Notes: generated by a model not told the origin, from the sequence alone. 64,000 bases of DNA from TPA_inf: Saccharomyces (GCA_000146045.2 BK006938.2:320001-384000); one strand, 5' to 3'; shown: positions 6,613 through 49,770, numbered from the stretch's first letter. Translations and numbers: made by a program.

Positions 6613-9567
6613 ATGGGTCCTGCCATACATAATCAACTATATGAATGTGGATTAAAGACTACGTCTCAAGATGGCTTCTTGATGGACAATTATGAAACTC
6701 AATTATTTCAATCGTTGAACAGGTTTATCAATTTCATAAACAATGCTAATCAGTCAGCTAGTAATAAAGAACAAAATACAAAATTTTGCAAATCCTCCTC
6801 AAATTTTTTACGCTTGAAACTACTAACGGTTCTAAGACAATGGTGTGATTCTTCACGAAGCAACTGTACACTGGAGGTTAGAGATGTTTTGACCCAATGG
6901 TGGGTCACACTTTTAAACTTTCTAAATTCTGACACCTCGCTTCAAATAGATACTGCCCTTGAATTGAGCTTGAGCATAGAACTAACTTCCGTGTGTCTCG
7001 AGTGCCTCAGCAAAATTATGACCATACTAATAATATTGCCTTTCCATTCATCCAGAGACATGGAAATATACTCACATCATCTTTTGCTGACCATTCATTG
7101 CATAACAAACAAGTTGATTTTGATTTCTAAAAACTCCAAAAAACTTAAACGTACAAATAGTGATGACAAGTGCTCTATAAACGACAAGAAGCTGCAATAC
7201 CTTAACAAATATTCTTCCTTGCTGCGAGCATTCATCGGGAAGTTAAATGCTTACGCATTTTTTTATCTACCAGAAGACTTTCATTTCGATACAATTTTGT
7301 TATTGACAGTTTCTCCTCAAATCTCTTCAAGTATTCAAACATCTTTGTTTTCATGGAAGAAGAGACAATATAAATTCACCGACGATCAGGGACAAATGAT
7401 CCGCACTGAAGCTTTTGAAAATAAAGATACTAAATTTTTTAAGATCATTGTTTCTTATATTAAAAATGATTTTGTACTTATGTCATTTTATTGGCACTAT
7501 TGGTATATCATACTTCAATTTATGAAATTCTCTGATTCAGATGTAGGAATTAAAAAATCGACATTGTCATGCATACCTGGCTCAGAAATTTTATTGACGC
7601 ATGTAACCACTAGATTCTTGAATTCAGATTTGAATAAATTCACGCGGATTATTAAACAAACGCCGAATCCAAGGATAGCAAATGAGAATGTGACAGAGTC
7701 ACATCCAAATTTCAAGAGTTTGAATAGTAGCAATGCTTTAATTACATCTGAAAGGATTAATGATTACGTATTTTCTAATTTTAAGACAATCAAATTATGG
7801 GAATGTCTTAGAAGCCTTTCAGGATGCATTCTTAAAGAAAATCATCCGGAATACCTGGAAAATATGCTTTCCTTACATGAGTCTCTATTGATAGACTATG
7901 TCTCCACTATTTCAGCGTACGATTATATTGCAGCGAACGTCATTTACAATAAGGTTCTCCAGTTTATTATTTTCCAGTTTGAAAGTTTACCTTCTCTGAA
8001 ATTCATTCAATGGAGGTCGTGGTACAATGGGCTTTTGAGTATGTTAAGGACCAAAAATGTTAACTGCCAGACTGTTTCTTTATTATGCCTTTTCAATATT
8101 TGGAAGCACGTAACCATTGAGGACCGCGATGAAATAGTAAAAGTGCTGTTAAGTGATTTTTGGGAGTCATTGATTTTTGAAAACGAATTTCCTTTGATTA
8201 GAATTTTATTTATGAAGGTATTAGTTTTTAAAATCATTCCAAGTGTTCAAAATTCTTCTTCATTACGATTCTTGCCACATGATAGAATTAAACAACTATA
8301 TGAAGAGCTACTGGTAAACAAGGAGGAGTTATTTGAGATGCAAAAACACGATTCAAATGATATAGTGGCGCATAGAAAGAATGCTCTCGTTTTTAATGGT
8401 AACTCACGTTTGATGATGATTCCAAAAAAACCAAATACAGAGGACCACTTAGTTTATAAGATTAATCATGATAAAAATTTAACTACAGAAAGATTTCCCT
8501 CTGTCAGCTCAGTGGCAAATACAAGACCTAACGTTATCTTGAAAAATGGTAAATACGCTTATGATATTTTGGACGAAATGACAAGTAAAGCTGCCTTTCT
8601 TCTTGCAGAAAAGAAGACCCGACTAAATCCCAAAAAAAATCACAAAATTATGGATGGCTACGAAGGAGGTCAGGAAAACGAAGATAATGATGAAGACTCA
8701 GAAGATAGTGGCTCGCATAAAAATAAGAGAAAGGAAGGTAATAGTTCTTTATCGGCAACACTGAACACTTGGCTTTCAAAATTTTCAAGTACTTCTGAAG
8801 ATTCACAGAAGAAGAAGGAACAGGCAAATGAATTAGGCAACGATTTTGAATATGATGAAGATGTGGCTGATTTTGCAGAAATTTTGCCGAAGCAGTCATC
8901 TAGTAATATTGAAAAAATTTTTAAGCATGGTAACAATTCAGGATCAATGGTATCATATAATTCAAGTATCAAGCTCAATAGGAGGGAGAATATATTGATA
9001 GGTCCACCAGAGTTGAGATTTTCTAATGAAATCAAGGAACACAATAGTATTGCTACAATATTCAAACTGGTATTTATTCAAACCAATAGAAGAGTCGTCG
9101 AAAAAATAGATTTGGCGAACATGAAATGGGGGACAATCCACGGAGGCAGTAAGTACATGAAGCCTTTACCCGTCCCGAAAGATTTGGTTGCGAGTGTTGC
9201 TAAGAACGAAAGTGAGACGAGAAACTTAGCTACCTTATGCGGTAATGGTCTAGATTTTGAGATACCGGTGCCTGATTTTAATATTTTTGGCAAATGTATG
9301 GAAGATGAGCAAGATGTAGCCAAAATTGGTAATCAGAATGTGGAAGATTTGAAAGTTACTGGGGGGCGGGAGGTGACAATTTGGAAGCAGATCCAAGATA
9401 TGAAGTTGAGAACAAGGATACAAAAAATCTGTGTTTTAATTGAGACGTTCAATGCTACAGTAAGAGAATATTTTGAGTTTTCCAATCGATTAGAGCATGA
9501 CGGTATATTTATAGATTTTGAAGTGAGGAAACCTAGTAGTAATAATTCTATTAATATCAAAGTCTGA
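6613..9567 (+). CDS. AHK1: Scaffold protein of the HKR1 branch of the HOG pathway (984 aa)
   Basis: 984-aa ORF at the position of YDL073W between BRE1 and YET3. Named from size and synteny only; I do not recognise the sequence itself. Confidence 0.8.
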   Translation: MGPAIHNQLYECGLKTTSQDGFLMDNYETQLFQSLNRFINFINNANQSASNKEQNTKFCKSSSNFLRLKLLTVLRQWCDSSRSNCTLEVRDVLTQWWVTLLNFLNSDTSLQIDTALELSLSIELTSVCLECLSKIMTILIILPFHSSRDMEIYSHHLLLTIHCITNKLILISKNSKKLKRTNSDDKCSINDKKLQYLNKYSSLLRAFIGKLNAYAFFYLPEDFHFDTILLLTVSPQISSSIQTSLFSWKKRQYKFTDDQGQMIRTEAFENKDTKFFKIIVSYIKNDFVLMSFYWHYWYIILQFMKFSDSDVGIKKSTLSCIPGSEILLTHVTTRFLNSDLNKFTRIIKQTPNPRIANENVTESHPNFKSLNSSNALITSERINDYVFSNFKTIKLWECLRSLSGCILKENHPEYLENMLSLHESLLIDYVSTISAYDYIAANVIYNKVLQFIIFQFESLPSLKFIQWRSWYNGLLSMLRTKNVNCQTVSLLCLFNIWKHVTIEDRDEIVKVLLSDFWESLIFENEFPLIRILFMKVLVFKIIPSVQNSSSLRFLPHDRIKQLYEELLVNKEELFEMQKHDSNDIVAHRKNALVFNGNSRLMMIPKKPNTEDHLVYKINHDKNLTTERFPSVSSVANTRPNVILKNGKYAYDILDEMTSKAAFLLAEKKTRLNPKKNHKIMDGYEGGQENEDNDEDSEDSGSHKNKRKEGNSSLSATLNTWLSKFSSTSEDSQKKKEQANELGNDFEYDEDVADFAEILPKQSSSNIEKIFKHGNNSGSMVSYNSSIKLNRRENILIGPPELRFSNEIKEHNSIATIFKLVFIQTNRRVVEKIDLANMKWGTIHGGSKYMKPLPVPKDLVASVAKNESETRNLATLCGNGLDFEIPVPDFNIFGKCMEDEQDVAKIGNQNVEDLKVTGGREVTIWKQIQDMKLRTRIQKICVLIETFNATVREYFEFSNRLEHDGIFIDFEVRKPSSNNSINIKV

Positions 9568-35673: not shown

Positions 35674-36759
35674 TCACATAATAATAGCTTCCTTTGGAAC
35701 ATTATCGGAGATAGACTTATGAGGTAAGACTTTACCACCGTTGATGTAGATTTCGTCCTTAACTTCAACGTCGTCACCCAAGACAGTGACACCTTCCAAA
35801 CGACACCATTGACCAACGGTAGAGTTCCAGCCTACGATGGTAGATTTGACCAAGGAGTGGTTCTTGATGGTGGAGTTGCACAAAACAACAGATCTGGTGA
35901 TTCTAACACCATCACCGATGGTGACATTAGGACCGATAACCACGTCTGGGCCAATCTTAGCAGTGGAGGAAATCTTAGCGGTTGGGTCGATCAAGGCATT
36001 ACCAACAATGTTGGCACCTGTAGCCAATTTTTTTGGTTGTCTCTTGGCCAAAGAGTTCAAGTAAAGAACGGTACCAGACAAGAAGTCCTTTGGTTGACCA
36101 ACATCCATCCAGAAACCTTCCAAATCGAAGGAATATAGTTGTTTTTCTTCGACCAAGATTGGGAAAGTTTCCTTTTCAATTGAAGTTGGCTTCATTTCAA
36201 TCAAGTCAATGACTTCTGGGTTTAAAATGTACAAACCGGCGTTAATTCTGTTACCAACAAATTCCTTTGGCTTTTCAACAAATCTGTCAATCAAGTTTGG
36301 AGTAGCTATATCATGGACAATGACACCGTATTTAGAAGGTTCGTCGACCTTGGTAGCAACAATGGTACCTTTACCACCGTGAGCTTTGTGGAAGTCAGCC
36401 AATTCCTTGAATGGATATTCGCAAATGACGTCGGAGTTTAGGACGAAAAATGGAGAGTTGTCCTTCTTCAAAACATCTTCAGCCAATTTCAATGGACCTG
36501 CAGTACCTAATGGTTCAGTTTCTACAGAGAAAGTGATGTTAACACCATATTCCTTTTCGTACTTCTTCAAAGTTTCCACCATGACTTCTGGTCTGTAATT
36601 AACAGCAAGAACGATGTCAGTAACACCAGCGTTGGCTAAAGCCTCGATTTGGTGTAAAATCATTGGTCTATTACCGAATTCAACCAGTGGCTTTGGAACG
36701 GTCAAAGTTAAAGGTCTCAATCTGGTACCGTAACCACCGACTAAAATTAAACCTTTCAT
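35674..36759 (-). CDS. PSA1: GDP-mannose pyrophosphorylase (mannose-1-phosphate guanylyltransferase), 361 aa
   Basis: N-terminal nucleotidyltransferase motif [18 protein letters not shown] and C-terminal left-handed beta-helix hexapeptide repeats. 361 aa; synteny YDL055C. Confidence 0.95.
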
Positions 36760-37118
36760 TTTTCAATTATATATGTTTTATTTGTTGAAGTTGTAGCTTG
36801 TCTTGTGCTGATAATATTTTGTTTGTATAGTCAACAAAATATTTGGACAGAAGAAAAGAGTTAGCGAATGTAAAGTAGTTTGCACACTTGATGAACGTTA
36901 TCAAAGTCAAAGAGGTGAGAACAAGATAGACAAAGAAAAAAAAAATACAGTTTTGGAGAAAAGAAAACAAGACTATGTGAAACTTCTAACAATGACGTGA
37001 AAAGTCTACTATATATATGTTTACAAGAGCGCCACGAGGCAAGGAAAAAAAGAAAACAAAGCGAGAAACCACCAGCTTACTTTACTACCGGTCAGCTGTG
37101 GTTCTGTGTCTGTTCGTC

Positions 37119-37139
37119 TGTTTGTTTGTTTGTTTGTTT
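37119..37139. repeat. (TTTG)n tetranucleotide repeat, about 5 units
   Basis: Seen directly about 360 bp upstream of the PSA1 ATG. Confidence 0.9.
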
Positions 37140-39576
37140 ATTGCTGCGCTGTTCATGCTGAAAAACGACAAAAACAAAGAAAAAAAAGTTTTTCAGAGAT
37201 TGAGATAAAAATAAACGTGGTGGCTCCCGAGGCATTTCTAGCTGGCCAGCAAGTACACGGTGGCCGTTTCTTTTGGCGTTTTTTTTTTCTGTTTTCGCGT
37301 TCTTCATGCTGTGCGTTGCTGGTGAGGTGGCGTGGACGGTTTGGTTTAGGCAATGATAGAAAAAGCTATAGTCAGAGTTGCAGGAAAGGACGAAAGTAGT
37401 CCATTTGGTGCCGTTATCCAAGGGTCTTGCTCTTAGTCTTGCTTTTCACCCAGCACGCGGTAAGAAGGATCGGGTGCAGCATGAAGAATGCTGACTGTAC
37501 GCGTTTCGATTTGAAGCTTTAGGATGTTCTGTGGGTTGGGTTGGCTCGATCGACAGTGCGTATAGTGACCTTTGAACTGTACCGGGTGGCACGTCGTGCA
37601 CAGAATCAGAAGTAGTTATAAAAGATTTGTAATTGCGTATATGCAACCAAGTTTAGGCTTTCTCCGTGCCGTTTTTTAAGGTGAAATGTACTCCTCTTGA
37701 AAATGTAAAAAAATGGAGCCTCGCAGAGCAGCTTGCCAAGCAGGTTGATACAAGGTGAGCCGCCGAAACATAACGATAAACGTGGTATAGTTTTCGATTG
37801 CCTTTAGTTTGGGTGGTCTCAGTGCTGGCACCTGACGAACTATTCGTAGGCAGGAGAACTTGCATCATGTGGTGTTCTTCCGAGATAGGGATGCCGTTTG
37901 GTCCTTACGAAAGTCAATGTTCTGGTACTACTAATTATTAACATAGTTCGTTGTATACACACTCTTTACTTTCATAAGAAATAAAAAGCACGTCTAAGAA
38001 ATCTCTACGTCTTGGCTGCGGCAAGCAACTGCATAGAAAGCACATAGTAGTAACTCTAAAATGCGAGCTTCATACAGACAATTACATAAATGCAACATAG
38101 GCAGCATGGGATCCTGGGTTTCATATCGTCAAAGAAAGCCACCAACTGGCTTTACCATAAAAATACGAAAAGAAGTGCACACATTCTTCTTTTTGGCTCA
38201 TCACAAGTTCTTCAATTTACTGTCATTACTTTTGTTTCCTTGTCAGATAATGTATGGGTGGTGTGTACACCAAGGTATTTTTTTTTTTACTTGGCAGATC
38301 TGCAATGCATAATAGAATGGTAAGGGAACGAGTAACAGACGGGAAGCGAATGCGAACACAAAGAATATAAATTTGAAATCTCCTGTTGCAAAGGATTCTC
38401 TAGACATTTACTATCTCAGTGACAATTCTCGAGTGAAACAAGAAATTGAGATGGTAGGTCAGCGCCCATACTTCTTGAATCAATTGGAGGAGCGGATAAA
38501 GCAAGTTTCCCCCCTCAATGTAAATCATCTTAAGCAAAATTTTAAAATCTAGGCACATATAAAGAGAAAATGGGAATGATTTTGCTGGATAGGCTACAGT
38601 GTTAGGAATGCAGAATTAGGAACTATAGATGATGCGATTAAAGATATTAAACGAGAAGTGACAGTGGTGGCTTCGACAACGGCAGTCGTGCTCGGTCGAC
38701 AACGTGTATGTTTTTGCCGAGCAGAGCAGGGAAAGTCCTTCTTTCTGCGCGTGAATCAAAACACATTGGTATCGAATTTAACATATCTGGGTGAGGAATG
38801 GACAATCCTAATAAAGTACTGGAGGTTTGTCTGTATTTCCAAGTTCTTGCTTGTAGAAACTGCTTTCTTTTCTCTTTTCCTGCAGCGGTCGAACATATGT
38901 GATTATTGATTAGCCATTTGTTCCAAGTCATATAGTAGTATTACGTGTTCAGATGCGGTGTTAGCGTATCTTTTTGTTAAATAAAATATCATTGTGCCGT
39001 TGCCGCCCTACCTGCCAAGGGTCAAAGAAGGCACCTTTATACGATGCCACCTTTTTATAGTATTCTACTACAGAGTCATCGTTCACCAGTTACTGTTCAT
39101 TCTACTAAATTAGTATGGCGTGTTGCATAGAAGGAAGCATGAATTACAAGATCAGTAGAACAAAAAGTTCAACTGTTTGGAATTTAGTTGAACATGTGAC
39201 GAAAGCTCTGCTACTAAGACAGGGGCAAAAAATAACAATATGTAAGCATAAGAAATGGGTCAATGTTGGGATACTTGGTGAATTCCGTTCTTTTTAGAAG
39301 CGGATTTTCTTATTCGTTTATATGTTGCCATTCATTACCCTATCATATTATGAATCTTCACATTTTATTTTCCATAAGATCTGATGACTGTTTCCCAATC
39401 ACCTTACATCATATATGATAATGTACAATTGATATGAAGAATAGCAGTCGATGGATGATATTTTATTCTTATTATCAACATGTACAAAGTGTTGGAACGG
39501 TAAAGACCAGTGCAAATCTGATAAAACTTTAAAATAACATGGACAAATTTATGTCCAGGATTCTCCGAAGAACTCA

Positions 39577-39672
39577 TCCTTGTTAGCTCAGTTGGTAGAG
39601 CGTTCGGCTTTTAAGCGCATTTGCTTAAGCAAGGATACCGAAATGTCAGGGGTTCGAGCCCCCTATGAGGAG
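39577..39672 (+). tRNA. tK(UUU)D: tRNA-Lys (anticodon UUU) with a 23-nt intron at about 39614..39636
   Basis: TCCTTGTTAGCTCAGTTGGTAGAGCGTTCGGCTTTTAA[gcgcatttgcttaagcaaggat]ACCGAAATGTCAGGGGTTCGAGCCCCCTATGAGGAG. The cloverleaf folds with anticodon loop CTTTTAA, an intron 1 nt 3' of the anticodon, and a T-loop GGTTCGAGCC. Yeast tRNA-Lys(UUU) genes are intron-containing. Confidence 0.93.
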
Positions 39673-39824: not shown

Positions 39825-41285
39825 TTAAATTCTGAGTTTTCTACTTTTTAATTTCCAAAATACTACAGCTGAAAGAACAGCGGATACAACGAATGCGATA
39901 CTGCTGTACTTGTAGACAGCCGAAATACAGGACGGATTTCGCAGATCTCCTCCGCCACTCATACAGCGAGAATCGTAAAATTTGGCATACAACATGCAAA
40001 ATATCATAGAACCTATAGCAGGTGCAATTAGTAAGCTACCGTAAACAGTCCCGAATGAGCGTTCGCCCCATACTAACAGGACCAGCGTCGGATAAACAGT
40101 GAAAAGTCCACCGTATACAATTCCAACCAATGATCCTGTAGGTACTAGCCCCCAGGGTGACGCTGAAGAGGTCATTTTCAATAAAAACAGTTGTGCACAT
40201 ACCCCTAATGAAAGGAAAGTCAACAGGATCCATTTAATTGATATTTTTTTCTTGGCGAAGAAGTCTGCCACTATGCCTGTGAGCAATCTCGTAAAAGTGG
40301 AAGATAGCGCGTATGTGGATAACAACTTTGTAGATAAGGTTGGCGCATCTAATTGGACTAGCAGGTTAGTCAGTGATCCCATATTGGCAATAAACATCTC
40401 GAGGGGCCCAAGTGATAACAAAATTGATACCGCTAGGATATATGTCACAGGATCACTAAAGATCCTTAGCATCGTCTGCGTAAACTTTTCTTGAACATGA
40501 TTACTTCGTTCTAACAGCGGTGATTGTTCCACATCAGTTTGATCATCCAGCCGTTTTTGGTTGTCTTGCTCTTCATTAAAATGCAAAAGTGATACCACGC
40601 TGGTGGCTATCCATGCAAGTAGCCCAATAACGACATAAACGAGGGCAAATGTTTGGAATACTCTTCCCAGGTTTAAGTCACTATTGGACGAGGAAGAACT
40701 TGCGTTAGAGGACCAGAACCATTTGATTCTTAGCAGTTGAGAACCGACTACAGAAGAAATACCATAACATGTCGTTGGTAAGCTAATGGATAGTAGTTTT
40801 GTATGAGGATATAGCTTAGTGCATGTCAGTAAAGCGCTAAAGTATAAAGCGCTTGTTGATATACCTATGAAAACGAAACAAATGATGGATAGATTGAATG
40901 ATGAGTCACCATTTCCTCCGAGAGATAACTCCGGATGATTAAAAACGTAAGCCAGATATGAATAGCTAGGTATGAACCCTATGATGGCTAAAAGACTTAA
41001 AGTAATGGGGCCATGAGAATCAGCGATCATCCCCAAGATTGGTGGCGTCAAGTACATCCCCAAATTAGTCATACTAGCGATGGTGTTGATTTGCCATGAG
41101 GAATAATTTAAATGTTTCTGCCACGGTTGAGAGTAAAGAGATATCAAAGTAATGAAGCCAGTTGACACCGCAGATAATAGCGAAAAGATGTATGCAACAC
41201 GATGTGATGACTGAAGAGACAAAACATGGGGTAAGAGTAAGCGCGTATGGTATGAAAGGTAGTGCTCCACCTTTGATAGAGGCAT
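39825..41285 (-). CDS. MCH1: Major facilitator superfamily transporter, monocarboxylate-permease-like (486 aa from MPLSKVEH; ORF extends 3 codons upstream)
   Basis: About 12 predicted transmembrane helices; position corresponds to YDL054C. Start choice rests on recalling a 486-aa product. Confidence 0.85.
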   Translation of the reverse strand: MPLSKVEHYLSYHTRLLLPHVLSLQSSHRVAYIFSLLSAVSTGFITLISLYSQPWQKHLNYSSWQINTIASMTNLGMYLTPPILGMIADSHGPITLSLLAIIGFIPSYSYLAYVFNHPELSLGGNGDSSFNLSIICFVFIGISTSALYFSALLTCTKLYPHTKLLSISLPTTCYGISSVVGSQLLRIKWFWSSNASSSSSNSDLNLGRVFQTFALVYVVIGLLAWIATSVVSLLHFNEEQDNQKRLDDQTDVEQSPLLERSNHVQEKFTQTMLRIFSDPVTYILAVSILLSLGPLEMFIANMGSLTNLLVQLDAPTLSTKLLSTYALSSTFTRLLTGIVADFFAKKKISIKWILLTFLSLGVCAQLFLLKMTSSASPWGLVPTGSLVGIVYGGLFTVYPTLVLLVWGERSFGTVYGSLLIAPAIGSMIFCMLYAKFYDSRCMSGGGDLRNPSCISAVYKYSSIAFVVSAVLSAVVFWKLKSRKLRI

Positions 41286-48211: not shown

Positions 48212-49259
48212 AGGGGAAGCCAAAGAAAAGAAGTAACAAATATTCCAAGCGCTCCAGTGTTACAGCTACTGCAAACCAAGAAAAGCAACTGACAAGAATT
48301 AGATATCCTAATCATAGGGCACCGAATTTACTTCCATGTTTTTTCCAGCTCCACTTAGAATATATATATAAATGTATAAAGACGGAAATATGCGCTTTTG
48401 AGAAATAGACAGAATAAAGAACGCACTGATGCAGCTTTAACTTTTAAGAAATGGTGCTTTTTTTTTCGCCCTCTGTTCCTCTGCGGATGGGAGCTATCAG
48501 TAGTAGAAAACAAAAGGAAACGAAGAAAAAAAATTGGAAAAGGGAAGAGTAAAACAGCGAGGAGAGCATTACGTACATAAAATAGGTTTAAGTAACCATA
48601 CCACTAACAATGCCCCTAGGAAGTGACAATCTAGAGATATCCTTGAGAGTTAGCCACGGGCCGTAAGGGAAGGAAAAGACCAATCTAGCAATAAGCGCAT
48701 GGGGGGTTTCCGACAGCCACTACCAAATTGTGTGGCAGCCAAGCGAGAATCAATGCGGCTATTTGAGATCTGTTCTTTTTCTATTCAAAGACTCGAATGA
48801 GGCCAACGAAAGAAGTAGTAAAAAAAATCCGGGATTCCCAATTCAGGTCATATCCGGCAAGACATTCCCGGATTTTATTTTCCTCAATGTGCTCGTGTAA
48901 GTGTCGGCCCGGAACTTGATTCCCCCCGGACTAATTAGAAGTTCCGAGAACGCGCGCAAGCCGTCCCGCGCGTAGAAGGCTAAAAAGCAGCCGGAGGAAA
49001 AAAAATAACGCAAATGTGGGCTCCCCTTCCCCTGTGCGGCCACGTCGTGCCTCCCCACCATTTGCCTCATATGCGGCCATTGCGTGTGGTGTTTTTTCTG
49101 CTCTTGTCACTGATTTTAACTACCGCGGGGTTTGACTAACAAGCAAATTGCAAAGCCGCGGCGGTTCCCGGAAAAAAAAAAAGGAAGGCCACGCTATTGG
49201 TAACCATGAAGTGTAAGGCGACGCAGGAGAGATGAAAAGAATGAAATTAAAAGAAATCC

Positions 49260-49283
49260 AAAAAAAAAAAAAAAAAAAAAAAA
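49260..49283 (+). promoter_or_regulatory. Poly(dA:dT) tract A24 in the STP4/SIT4 divergent promoter; likely nucleosome-excluding element
   Basis: 24 consecutive A residues are seen directly, followed by AGAAAAAGAAAGAAAAAG. Confidence 0.6.
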
Positions 49284-49317
49284 GAAAAAGAAAGAAAAAG
49301 GGGGAATAACACAGCCG

Positions 49318-49324
49318 CGGGTAA
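49318..49324 (-). promoter_or_regulatory. Reb1-like site TTACCCG(C) about 450 bp upstream of SIT4
   Basis: The plus strand reads cgggtaa at 49318..49324. The Reb1 consensus is TTACCCGG. Confidence 0.35.
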
Positions 49325-49770
49325 CATGAAGCGGCGCGAGCGATACTTCCGTGTTAAGTGATATCCATCTTTCTGCGGGTAATAAGTCTAGTCAAGTCCG
49401 CTGTATTTTTTCTTTCGCTCTCGCTCTCTTTCTCTCTTCGCTCATGGAGCGGTAAAAAAAAAACATGCATATCGAGTCGAAGCCCAGCAAAATTAAAAAA
49501 AATATAGCCTTCAGTGGAAACCCAGTGATGCTCGCACACAACGTAATGGAGCATTGAAGAGCTACAGACGGTAGATAAAAAAGAAAAAGAAGCAATACAA
49601 TAGGTTATTGCATACTATCATAAGCATACAGATAAAGGAGTTCTGCACATACGGTCCCTCTTTCTCTTCCTATTATTCTTCAGTCCCCTCCTCGCTCTTT
49701 TTAGATTCGACATTACAAGGTGAAATACTATTGAAGCTCAAAAACATCCATAATAAAAGGAACAATAACA

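Follow-up and report, generated by a model that had tools for sequence, protein, structure and literature searches.

The long GC-rich, ORF-free interval upstream of PSA1 in Saccharomyces cerevisiae is probably a composite of ordinary intergenic parts

PSA1, MCH1 and MBP1 are the neighbouring genes at the locus described here, which belongs to chromosome IV of Saccharomyces cerevisiae and lies within a 64 kb stretch of DNA (64,000 nucleotides) that was analysed as a whole and is referred to below as the window. Between the PSA1 ORF and a gene for tRNA-Lys extends an interval in which the longest reading frame has 109 codons and begins at a TTG, and the longest frame begun by an ATG has 94 codons (Table 1). 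This agrees with the preliminary description of the DNA, in which no frame was said to exceed about 110 codons and the same two genes were named as the limits. When followed as far as MCH1, the ORF-free segment measures 3065 bp and is the longest in the window, compared with a median of 442 bp, so the gap had rightly been called unusually large.

Table 1. Features of the interval upstream of PSA1 and of its neighbours. Positions are those of the window, and negative numbers are distances from the PSA1 ATG.
Feature	Position	Strand	Remarks
PSA1 ORF	35674..36759	minus	left-hand neighbour
ORF-free interval	36760-39576		limited on the left by the PSA1 ORF, on the right by tRNA-Lys(UUU); probably chrIV about 356760-359576 (window position + 320000)
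PSA1 5'UTR	36760..36908	minus	transcription start site (TSS) reported at -149, i.e. 149 nt upstream of the ATG (PMC8098854); strong conservation across four Saccharomyces species
PSA1 core promoter and proximal UAS	36909..37310	minus	conserved like coding DNA
ACGCGAAA, predicted SBF/MBF site	37293..37300	minus	MCB (ACGCG) and SCB (CGCGAAA) combined; at -541
GC-rich patch, putative distal promoter	37311..37900	none	positional GC conservation, weak sequence conservation
Unconstrained spacer	37601..38247	none	four-species identity 0.11; no Pfam or Rfam match
ACS exact match TTTTACATTTT	37700-37710	minus	11/11 to WTTTAYRTTTW; the sole one in the interval
Conserved 118-bp island	38248..38365	none	four-species identity 0.58; centred on a canonical Rap1 site
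Candidate Rap1 site CACCCATACAT	38250-38260	minus	oriented towards PSA1
Fast-evolving unconstrained spacer, Ty landing zone	38366..39303	none	four-species identity 0.09; upstream of the tRNA gene
Ty1/Ty2 delta LTR, degenerate 5' half	39304..39480	minus	delta positions 1-188, from the TGTTG terminus
tRNA-Lys(UUU) gene, 23-nt intron	39577..39672	plus	Rfam RF00005, 52.9 bits; aragorn tRNA-Lys (ttt) with intron

Four-species identity denotes identity across all of S. cerevisiae, S. kudriavzevii, S. mikatae and S. arboricola. It is 0.66 at 36760-37310, 0.32 at 37311-37600, 0.11 at 37601-38247, 0.58 at 38248-38365 and 0.09 at 38366-39303, compared with 0.37-0.55 in neighbouring intergenic regions and 0.65-0.85 in CDS. 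In the comparison among sensu stricto yeasts that had been proposed as a check on the interval, the segment next to PSA1 is conserved like CDS, the GC-rich patch is conserved no better than the intergenic regions around it, and most of the DNA beyond can hardly be aligned at all. The distance between MCH1 and PSA1 is smallest in Nakaseomyces bracarensis (1.08 kb) and S. uvarum (1.2 kb), reaches 2.5-2.8 kb in S. arboricola and S. kudriavzevii and 3.07 kb in S. cerevisiae, and is largest in S. mikatae (7.8 kb).

The segment at 36760-37310 carries a TATA box, a (TTTG)n tract and the ACGCGAAA site. In the four-species alignment TATATATATG at 37009-37018 is invariant and a block at about 37172-37300 is nearly so, and the core promoter region aligns to S. 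uvarum at 72-73%. The (TTTG)n tract, earlier placed at 37119-37139, is real and is delimited by TRF as a (TTTG)n/(CAAA)n repeat at 37107-37139 with period 4 and 8.2 copies. The ACGCGAAA octamer is unchanged in S. cerevisiae, S. kudriavzevii, S. mikatae and S. arboricola and was found upstream of PSA1 in all yeasts scanned (9/9), at -320 to -640 and in either orientation. PSA1 thereby has the conserved upstream element (MCB, ACGCGN, or SCB, CRCGAAA) by which SBF/MBF G1 promoters are recognised. Published work counts the gene among the targets of SBF/Swi6, notes that its Swi6 sites are conserved, and places it in SBF/Swi6 ChIP-chip modules (PMC2244593, PMC1637117), and the cell-cycle regulation of its mRNA is credited to Benton 1996 within PMC8098854. 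Judging from the motif and its conservation, ACGCGAAA is likely to be an SBF/MBF site for G1 expression of PSA1, and SBF/MBF acting through it would most likely drive the known G1 peak of the gene. With a conserved ACGCGAAA at about -540, further MCB/SCB cores upstream of it, a reported SBF/Swi6 target and an mRNA reported to be cell-cycle regulated, the region resembles the long SBF/MBF G1 promoters of CLN1/2 and of cell-wall genes. It differs from them in that the predicted sites are unusually far from the ATG (-540 to -940) and only one of them is conserved, the perfect MluI site being specific to S. cerevisiae.

The GC content is 0.466 over 37200-37900 and 0.498 over 37300-37600, compared with 0.359 for the intergenic DNA of the window, and the patch is at the 99th percentile among all segments of 400 bp and of 700 bp. 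The conspicuous GC-richness of this core had been correctly noticed, and both GC-rich strings quoted as examples are present, at about 37314-37345 and 37448-37481. The MluI/MCB hexamer ACGCGT is also present, at 37499-37504 (-745) and not at 37497-37502 as first given, and it is not conserved in the relatives; an ACGCGG core lies at 37455 within the patch. In 5/5 Saccharomyces species a GC peak is found at -500 to -900 from PSA1, reaching 0.65 in S. uvarum. Over -480 to -960, MCB/SCB cores summed over the five species number 18, against 6.8 expected from dinucleotide composition, a count that pools related species, one site being common by descent to all five and two more to S. cerevisiae and S. 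mikatae. Within 37311-37600, SNPs distinguishing 10 S. cerevisiae strains occur at 10/kb, compared with 23-38/kb elsewhere in the gap, a deficit that rests on 3 SNPs in 290 bp.

As read from the aligned promoters, the individual MCB/SCB sites of the patch, including the MluI site, turn over, while GC content and CGCG load stay at the same distance from the gene. The patch (about 37311-37900) would be the distal section of the same PSA1 promoter, with its GC content and MCB/SCB-type CGCG cores kept in five Saccharomyces species, and it may act as an SBF/MBF-responsive distal UAS or as a template for the non-coding transcript CUT488. Much of it may be dispensable, since S. uvarum manages with an alignable promoter of only about 640 bp. 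The earlier suggestion of an extended PSA1 regulatory region is supported for the first 550-850 bp or so of the interval, where CDS-like conservation is followed by a patch bearing MCB/SCB cores, but not for the MluI site that had been singled out.

The island is 74-82% identical to S. kudriavzevii, S. mikatae and S. arboricola by blastn. In addition to the candidate Rap1 site it holds a T10 tract, an invariant CTGCAATGCATAAT, an invariant GAGTAA and a block GGT[A/G]AGGGA that has one substitution in S. kudriavzevii. The exact 11-mer CACCCATACAT occurs a single time in the window; it is kept in S. kudriavzevii and S. mikatae and is represented by CACCCACACA in S. arboricola, so that a site of the Rap1 consensus (ACACCCRYACAY) is conserved in all four species. 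No such site was found at the locus in S. uvarum or in the non-Saccharomyces yeasts examined. RNAalifold gave no covariation support for the island on either strand (0-1 compensatory pairs, positive covariation term), and when metagenomes were scanned with the island motif the only matches were two S. cerevisiae contigs, neither a paralogous copy nor another species being found. A literature search for PSA1 together with Rap1 retrieved nothing relevant. The alignment indicates that the island is under selection in the clade from S. cerevisiae to S. arboricola. It is likely to be a distal factor-binding element (a UAS, a barrier or the start site of upstream non-coding transcription), and its motif suggests that it may bind Rap1. 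The exact CACCCATACAT core, the adjacent T-tract and the conservation in four species are reminiscent of the Rap1 (RPG-box) UAS of ribosomal-protein and glycolytic promoters. Such elements lie 200-450 bp from the ORF start and have paired sites, however, while the candidate site in the island is single, the nearest ORF start is some 1.5 kb away from it, and S. uvarum is without it.

The rest of the interval consists of spacer, and comparison of gene order suggests where it came from. In Torulaspora globosa the order is MCH1, SEC61, an ERG25-like gene and PSA1, with the ERG25-like gene divergent from PSA1 and SEC61 adjoining MCH1. Lachancea thermotolerans has SEC61 in the MCH1-PSA1 interval, and Naumovozyma dairenensis keeps the ERG25-like gene between MCH1 and PSA1, so relatives retain both candidate parent genes and S. 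cerevisiae keeps neither here. By synteny, then, a SEC61 copy and an ERG25-like gene formerly stood here. The remaining spacer of about 1.7 kb sits at the place from which they disappeared after the whole-genome duplication (WGD), and retrotransposon traffic upstream of tRNA-Lys has reshaped it since. The loss of both genes from the ancestral MCH1-SEC61-ERG25-like-PSA1 order resembles post-WGD reciprocal gene loss with enlarged spacers; the locus differs from regions with gene relics in that no relic is recognisable and the spacer varies from 1.1 to 7.8 kb among relatives. Nowhere in the gap are SNPs denser than in the segment at 38366-39303 (38/kb in the 10 S. cerevisiae strains), and at the place matching this segment S. 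mikatae has about 5 kb of extra DNA. Two coding candidates were rejected in the course of this work. A plus-strand ORF starting from the invariant GTGGTGGC block seemed to run for 113 codons in S. mikatae; it lacks an ATG, however, its stops vary from species to species and the frame is lost in S. uvarum. A DUP240-type relic had been considered because the gap of S. mikatae contains a DUP-family fragment; tblastn found nothing of the kind in the S. cerevisiae gap, and the fragment belongs to inserted DNA that is specific to S. mikatae.

According to the preliminary description the interval contains no LTR or tRNA-associated Ty remnant, and this is wrong. A delta fragment lies 97-273 bp upstream of the tRNA-Lys gene, inside the roughly 750 bp ahead of a Pol III gene in which solo LTRs are expected. 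Measured with an approximate delta query and not a curated consensus, its local alignment score is 115, compared with null means of 30-33 and with null maxima of 49 for shuffled sequence and 66 for other pieces of the window; the blastn E value is 2e-7. The similarity begins at TGTTG. No 3' half is recognisable (score 26 against a null mean of 25), nor is a 3' end or a target-site duplication, so the fragment lacks the length of about 330 bp, the ...CA 3' terminus and the 5-bp duplication of a full-length element and is a truncated remnant. Delta was not found in the gaps of S. kudriavzevii, S. arboricola and S. uvarum, and sigma was not found in the S. cerevisiae reference gap. The S. mikatae gap contains two solo sigma elements at the same tRNA, a delta piece and the DUP fragment, and one S. 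cerevisiae strain has a polymorphic sigma about 10 bp upstream of the tRNA-matching sequence, the 5' end of the tRNA falling in an assembly gap. With this delta fragment, the polymorphic sigma and the sigmas of S. mikatae, the tRNA-Lys gene resembles other Pol III genes with solo LTRs (delta, sigma) clustered upstream of them, the difference being that the delta here keeps just its 5' 188 bp at about 67% identity.

The PSA1 promoter is known to be crossed by a published unstable transcript, CUT488, which runs in the sense direction and has its 3' end at the PSA1 TSS (PMC8098854). It is degraded by the exosome, and by RT-qPCR both the rrp6-delta and the dis3 exo- mutations were found to stabilise it, with a parallel drop in Pol II recruitment to PSA1; a regulatory role at PSA1 is the proposal of the authors and not a demonstration (PMC8098854). 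The GC-rich patch lies upstream of the PSA1 TSS on the strand that gives CUT488, and we infer that the two overlap. In its sense orientation and the accompanying fall in Pol II recruitment, CUT488 is similar to SRG1 at SER3, IRT1 at IME1, the lncRNA upstream of HO and the CUT class, the last of which was reportedly described by Xu et al. in 2009. It departs from repression of the SRG1-SER3 type in that PSA1 is essential and constitutively high, and the regulatory role is one put forward by the CUT488 authors.

Several single explanations for the GC-rich core were weighed against this background. The least probable of all is that it encodes an unannotated stable or structured ncRNA, snoRNA-like or otherwise functional. 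GC-richness without ORFs, the slightly low SNP density in 37311-37600 and the existence of a non-coding transcript across the PSA1 promoter would suit such an RNA, but CUT488, the sole known transcript, is degraded by the exosome and not stable, so that the ncRNA suggested earlier is supported in part, by an unstable transcript, while nothing supports a stable or structured one. Neither at gathering thresholds nor at E <= 10 did Rfam match anything in the interval except the tRNA (the best other matches had E = 3-10 and 13-17 bits against thresholds of 45-100), fold z-scores over 37200-37900 are unremarkable on both strands (-1.8 to +1.2), the four-species identity of the core is low, and past about 37300-37340 it does not align to S. 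arboricola or S. uvarum. A few sliding windows reach z near -3, at 38310 and at 39210-39560, the latter in or beside the delta remnant. A decayed pseudogene of the ERG25-like gene divergent from PSA1, or of the SEC61 copy, is very unlikely as well. Synteny with T. globosa and N. dairenensis argues for it, and the predicted position and strand of an ERG25-like relic coincide with the core. However, tblastn with proteins of T. globosa, N. dairenensis and L. thermotolerans against six orthologous gaps gave best E values of about 0.1-0.2 at scattered positions, the SEC61, ERG25-like and Lachancea neighbour proteins left no residual frame-consistent similarity, and when all six frames of the entire gap were scanned against Pfam (E <= 10) only two chance matches of 12-13 bits came up. 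No frame is conserved between species, and tblastx is uninformative about coding because its similarity is equal in all six frames, as expected of conservation at the DNA level. Moreover, the GC content of the core (0.47-0.50) exceeds that of flanking coding sequence (0.41-0.42), which is not the expected product of decay of relaxed coding DNA, and S. uvarum has the GC peak although its 1.2 kb gap is too short for a relic. The lost gene proposed earlier is in this way supported by synteny but not by residual protein similarity. A replication origin (ARS), also suggested, is highly improbable: one exact ACS match does lie inside this long intergenic region, but such matches occur in the window at the chance rate (3 observed, 3.6 expected), and 50-bp segments around it have a four-species identity of 0.04-0.22. 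In sensu stricto yeasts a functional ACS is usually conserved. On the whole, no evidence was obtained that the interval holds a structured ncRNA, a conserved ORF or an origin of replication.

Two further readings fare a little better. The GC-rich patch could be a mutational by-product, left by GC-biased gene conversion if the PSA1 promoter has long been a hotspot of meiotic recombination, and would then have no sequence-specific function of its own. Hotspots of double-strand breaks in yeast are found in promoters and persist over evolutionary time, five species keep the GC by position while the sequence itself is not kept, and another long divergent promoter of the window has a similar GC-rich patch at about 48700-49250. 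We consider this unlikely, though the least so of the rivals, since the excess of MCB/SCB cores over the dinucleotide expectation and the reduced SNP density point to some constraint; it is also compatible with the promoter explanation, the two not being mutually exclusive. Distinctly unlikely is the reading of the island, at -1.5 kb, as a distal promoter from which a long sense transcript, be it an extended form of CUT488 or a LUTI-like PSA1 isoform with a longer 5' end, crosses the GC-rich patch and interferes with transcription of PSA1. The selection on the island in four species and the orientation of its Rap1 site towards PSA1 speak for it, as does the sense non-coding transcription through the promoter with its lower Pol II recruitment on accumulation (PMC8098854). 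The same report, however, puts the 3' end of CUT488 at the PSA1 TSS and gives no start as distant as 1.3 kb (PMC8098854). There is no minus-strand TATA box near the island, and S. uvarum and the non-Saccharomyces yeasts are without the island altogether. CUTs are typically just a few hundred nucleotides long, which also counts against this reading.

We therefore favour, with good but not full confidence, the view that the interval is a composite of ordinary intergenic parts, namely the PSA1 promoter, its GC-rich distal section, a spacer left by gene loss and Ty activity, and the Rap1 island, and not a single hidden element. Anatomy, conservation, synteny, motif distribution and the LTR remnant were established directly in this work, while CUT488, the PSA1 TSS and SBF targeting are taken from the literature. 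The main points on the interval were already known, and literature searches for this intergenic region, for PSA1 with LUTI and for PSA1 with MCH1 retrieved nothing relevant. The gain is mostly one of annotation, in that an eye-catching GC-rich, ORF-free region in a compact genome resolves into parts of known kinds: a long promoter under G1 control, across which non-coding transcription has been published, the scar of gene loss after the WGD, and remains of Ty elements beside a tRNA gene.

For the regulation of PSA1, the conserved SBF/MBF element is the predicted ACGCGAAA site at -541 and not the perfect MluI hexamer (-745), the genus preserves a high GC content at -500 to -900 in position but not in sequence, and a conserved candidate Rap1 island sits 1.5 kb upstream. 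One may go further and imagine, as a quite improbable proposal, that in the clade from S. cerevisiae to S. arboricola the island and the GC-rich patch together form a distal module in which a Rap1-dependent long sense transcript, non-coding or 5'-extended, passes over the patch and the SBF/MBF sites, tunes PSA1 by interference and links Rap1 growth-rate signalling to cell-wall glycosylation. If this is true, the module would tune the supply of GDP-mannose by way of the essential PSA1 gene, and it would have been gained within the genus or lost in S. uvarum.

The ORF-free interval that separates PSA1 from the tRNA-Lys gene (36760-39576) is a genuine but ordinary feature of this locus. In agreement with the preliminary description, its longest reading frame has 109 codons. 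No other ORF-free segment in the window is as long as the 3065 bp reaching to MCH1 (median 442 bp). The (TTTG)n tract reported there is a (TGTT/TTTG)8 run, and the two GC-rich strings cited from the core were both found in the sequence. The core itself has a GC content of 0.466 (37200-37900), or 0.498 at 37300-37600, against 0.359 for intergenic DNA, which places it at the 99th percentile among all same-size windows. The sole other equally GC-rich intergenic patch in the window (about 48700-49250, up to 0.52 in 400 bp) sits within a 1.56 kb ORF-free segment (48212-49770), which by synteny with sequence record L011 is the divergent STP4-SIT4 intergenic region. The exact PSA1 protein also occurs in assemblies taken to be S. 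cerevisiae, with MBP1-like and MCH1-like genes on either side, and the interval is 98.2-99.9% identical to its counterparts in ten such assemblies. The locus would thus belong to S. cerevisiae chromosome IV, a chromosome position less 320000 giving the window position. Default ARAGORN returned zero tRNAs for the whole window and overlooked the intron-containing tRNA-Lys(UUU), a case of intron-containing yeast tRNAs escaping default scans; snR63 is present within the window.

Orthologous MCH1-PSA1 loci were gathered via MCH1 homologues from S. kudriavzevii, S. mikatae, S. arboricola, S. uvarum, Naumovozyma dairenensis, Nakaseomyces bracarensis, Torulaspora globosa and Lachancea thermotolerans. 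The identity profile counts positions identical in all four of S. cerevisiae, S. kudriavzevii, S. arboricola and S. mikatae (see table). This profile, together with the S. uvarum sequence, which is alignable over 36760-37340 and the tRNA only, indicates strong constraint on the 550 bp adjoining PSA1. Past these 550 bp, conservation is no better than in the neighbouring intergenic DNA, and further out two virtually unalignable stretches are split by a conserved 118-bp island.

Features of the PSA1-MCH1 gap and its surroundings (window positions unless L012, the S. mikatae record, is named; identity is that of the four species)
Feature	Position	Strand	Identity	Remarks
PSA1 ORF	35674-36759	minus		361 aa, NTP-transferase/hexapeptide
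PSA1, MCH1 and PBP4 coding sequence			0.65-0.85	
Three neighbouring intergenic regions			0.37-0.55	
PSA1-adjoining segment	36760-37310		0.66	
TATATATATG	37009-37018			invariant
(TGTT/TTTG)8 tract	37107-37139			conserved
TTCATGCTG	37152-37160			third copy of this motif
Nearly invariant block	37172-37300			terminates in TTTTCGCGTT
Inverted repeat	37297-37311 / 37477-37491			GCGTTCTTCATGCTG / CAGCATGAAGAATGC
Inner GC-rich segment	37311-37600		0.32	
ACGCGT (MluI)	37499-37504			-745
Outer segment	37601-38247		0.11	
Exact ACS match	37700-37710			
Island	38248-38365		0.58	
Outer segment	38366-39303		0.09	
TATAAAT	38366			
34-codon ATG ORF	38451-38555	plus		MVGQRPYFLNQLEERIKQVSPLNVNHLKQNFKI
Delta LTR fragment	39304-39480	minus		delta positions 1-188
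tRNA-Lys(UUU)	39577-39672		0.93	23-nt intron; Rfam and aragorn intron search
MCH1	39825-41285			right of tRNA-Lys
Two solo sigma LTRs	L012 11736-12062, 12598-12924			adjoining tRNA
DUP-family gene fragment	L012 15190-15486	minus		98-aa ORF, Pfam DUP domain

PSA1 transcription is reported to start at -149 relative to the ATG (PMC8098854), which is at about 36908. Upstream of this start the four-species alignment contains the invariant TATATATATG, the conserved (TTTG)n tract and the nearly invariant block, within whose terminal motif, read as reverse complement, lies ACGCGAAA, which joins an MCB core and an SCB. The octamer is found upstream of PSA1 in 9 of 9 species, at -320 to -640 and in varying orientation, and PSA1 is listed among the SBF/Swi6 ChIP-chip targets, with conserved Swi6 sites (PMC2244593, PMC1637117). 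The MluI/MCB hexamer of the preliminary description is present, though not at 37497-37502; neither S. kudriavzevii nor S. arboricola has kept it, and its S. mikatae counterpart is reduced to CACGCGC. The GC patch also holds a 15-nt inverted repeat (93% complementary, arms 165 nt apart), which with the third copy of TTCATGCTG may represent a repeated factor site or chance.

Past 37310, composition is kept by position while the sequence is weakly conserved. In 5/5 Saccharomyces species GC content peaks 500-900 bp upstream of the PSA1 ATG; the peak is highest in S. uvarum (0.65), followed by S. arboricola (0.56), and stands at 0.47-0.51 in S. cerevisiae, S. kudriavzevii and S. mikatae. The peak interval has 2-5 MCB/SCB cores per species, in total 18 against 6.8 expected from dinucleotide shuffles, a count in which the species are non-independent and some sites common by descent. 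Among ten S. cerevisiae strains, 37311-37600 carries 10 SNPs per kb (small numbers), like coding DNA, versus 23-38 per kb elsewhere in the gap. The exosome-sensitive CUT488 runs in sense through the PSA1 promoter with its 3' end at the PSA1 start site, and its accumulation goes with lower Pol II recruitment at PSA1 (PMC8098854). Were CUT488 as long as CUTs usually are, its start would fall within the GC patch.

Of the explanations proposed earlier for the core, neither an RNA gene nor a relic of coding sequence finds support: Rfam gave no match, fold z-scores stay between -1.8 and +1.2, a six-frame Pfam scan gave no domain and no reading frame is conserved between species. As to the outcomes that the preliminary description named as refuting, the core shows no conservation above that of neighbouring intergenic regions, and neither Rfam, six-frame Pfam nor tblastn with the syntenic proteins gave homology to a protein or RNA family; on the transcript side, the literature does record CUT488 across the PSA1 promoter. 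Nothing in the interval supports a replication origin: its single exact ACS match lies in unconserved DNA, and the window holds 3 such matches versus 3.6 by chance.

The idea of a lost gene fares differently for the gap as a whole, the great length of which is explained by synteny. In T. globosa (L018), MCH1 is followed by SEC61, then by an ERG25-like gene of the sterol desaturase family on the opposite strand, and lastly by PSA1; SEC61 is at this position in L. thermotolerans also, and the post-WGD N. dairenensis retains the ERG25-like gene, divergent from PSA1. Since S. cerevisiae has neither gene here, the interval is a site of post-WGD gene loss. No relic is detectable, as tblastn with the syntenic proteins gave only chance-level matches in six orthologous gaps. 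Spacer length differs widely, from little more than 1 kb in N. bracarensis (1.08 kb) and S. uvarum (1.2 kb), through 2.5-2.8 kb in S. arboricola and S. kudriavzevii and the 3.07 kb of S. cerevisiae, to 7.8 kb in S. mikatae. The ERG25-like copy adjoining PSA1 is one of a pair, since both T. globosa and N. castellii have two such genes that share at least 90% identity and lie about 26 loci from each other, as do HG537_0E01520 and HG537_0E01260.

The preliminary description was mistaken in finding no LTR remnant. The 5' half of a Ty1/Ty2 delta LTR, matching from the TGTTG terminus, survives in degenerate form 97-273 bp upstream of tRNA-Lys (alignment score 115 versus null maxima of 49 and 66); its 3' half was not detected, and S. 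kudriavzevii, S. arboricola and S. uvarum have no delta in their orthologous gaps. Both LTR queries, delta and sigma, were uncurated sequences, and the sigma query was validated in S. mikatae, where it matches over its full length at 81-85%. The gap of that species (L012 11462-19244) holds the two sigma (Ty3) LTRs, a delta-like piece and the DUP fragment, all in DNA without S. cerevisiae counterpart. In the S. cerevisiae record L001 (GCA_014132375.1, about 7020-7200), a sigma end lies some 10 bp upstream of tRNA-Lys-matching sequence and is followed by an assembly gap (run of N) spanning the tRNA 5' end; this is a polymorphic Ty3 insertion, and it raised the apparent tRNA SNP count in the strain comparison. 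At 39110-39560, where the delta remnant and its surroundings are unconserved, several 150-nt windows are more stable than shuffles on both strands (z -2.4 to -3.0), which probably reflects AT-rich inverted repeats.

The island starts with TAATGTATGGGTGG, the minus-strand reading of which, CCACCCATACATTA, has the form of a canonical Rap1 site oriented to PSA1; its core CACCCATACAT occurs in exact form nowhere else in the 64 kb of the window. The putative site is followed by a T10 tract and by the conserved blocks CTGCAATGCATAAT and GAGTAA, both invariant, and GGT[A/G]AGGGA, with one substitution in S. kudriavzevii. Four species, S. cerevisiae, S. kudriavzevii, S. mikatae and S. arboricola, have the island at -1393 to -1531, and S. 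uvarum and the non-Saccharomyces yeasts examined lack it; a motif scan of metagenome contigs returned only S. cerevisiae copies of the same locus. Short conserved blocks with no covariation across them suggest protein-binding DNA and not RNA. The plus-strand TATAAAT just past the island is S. cerevisiae-specific, and neither it nor the 34-codon ORF that follows is conserved in other species.

Overall, the interval most probably comprises a long SBF/MBF-type promoter, which has a distal GC-rich part conserved in position and is itself crossed by published unstable transcription, and an outer spacer under no constraint, which ancient gene loss left behind and Ty insertions at the tRNA gene have remodelled. 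The conserved Rap1 island is the sole element that might merit an experiment.
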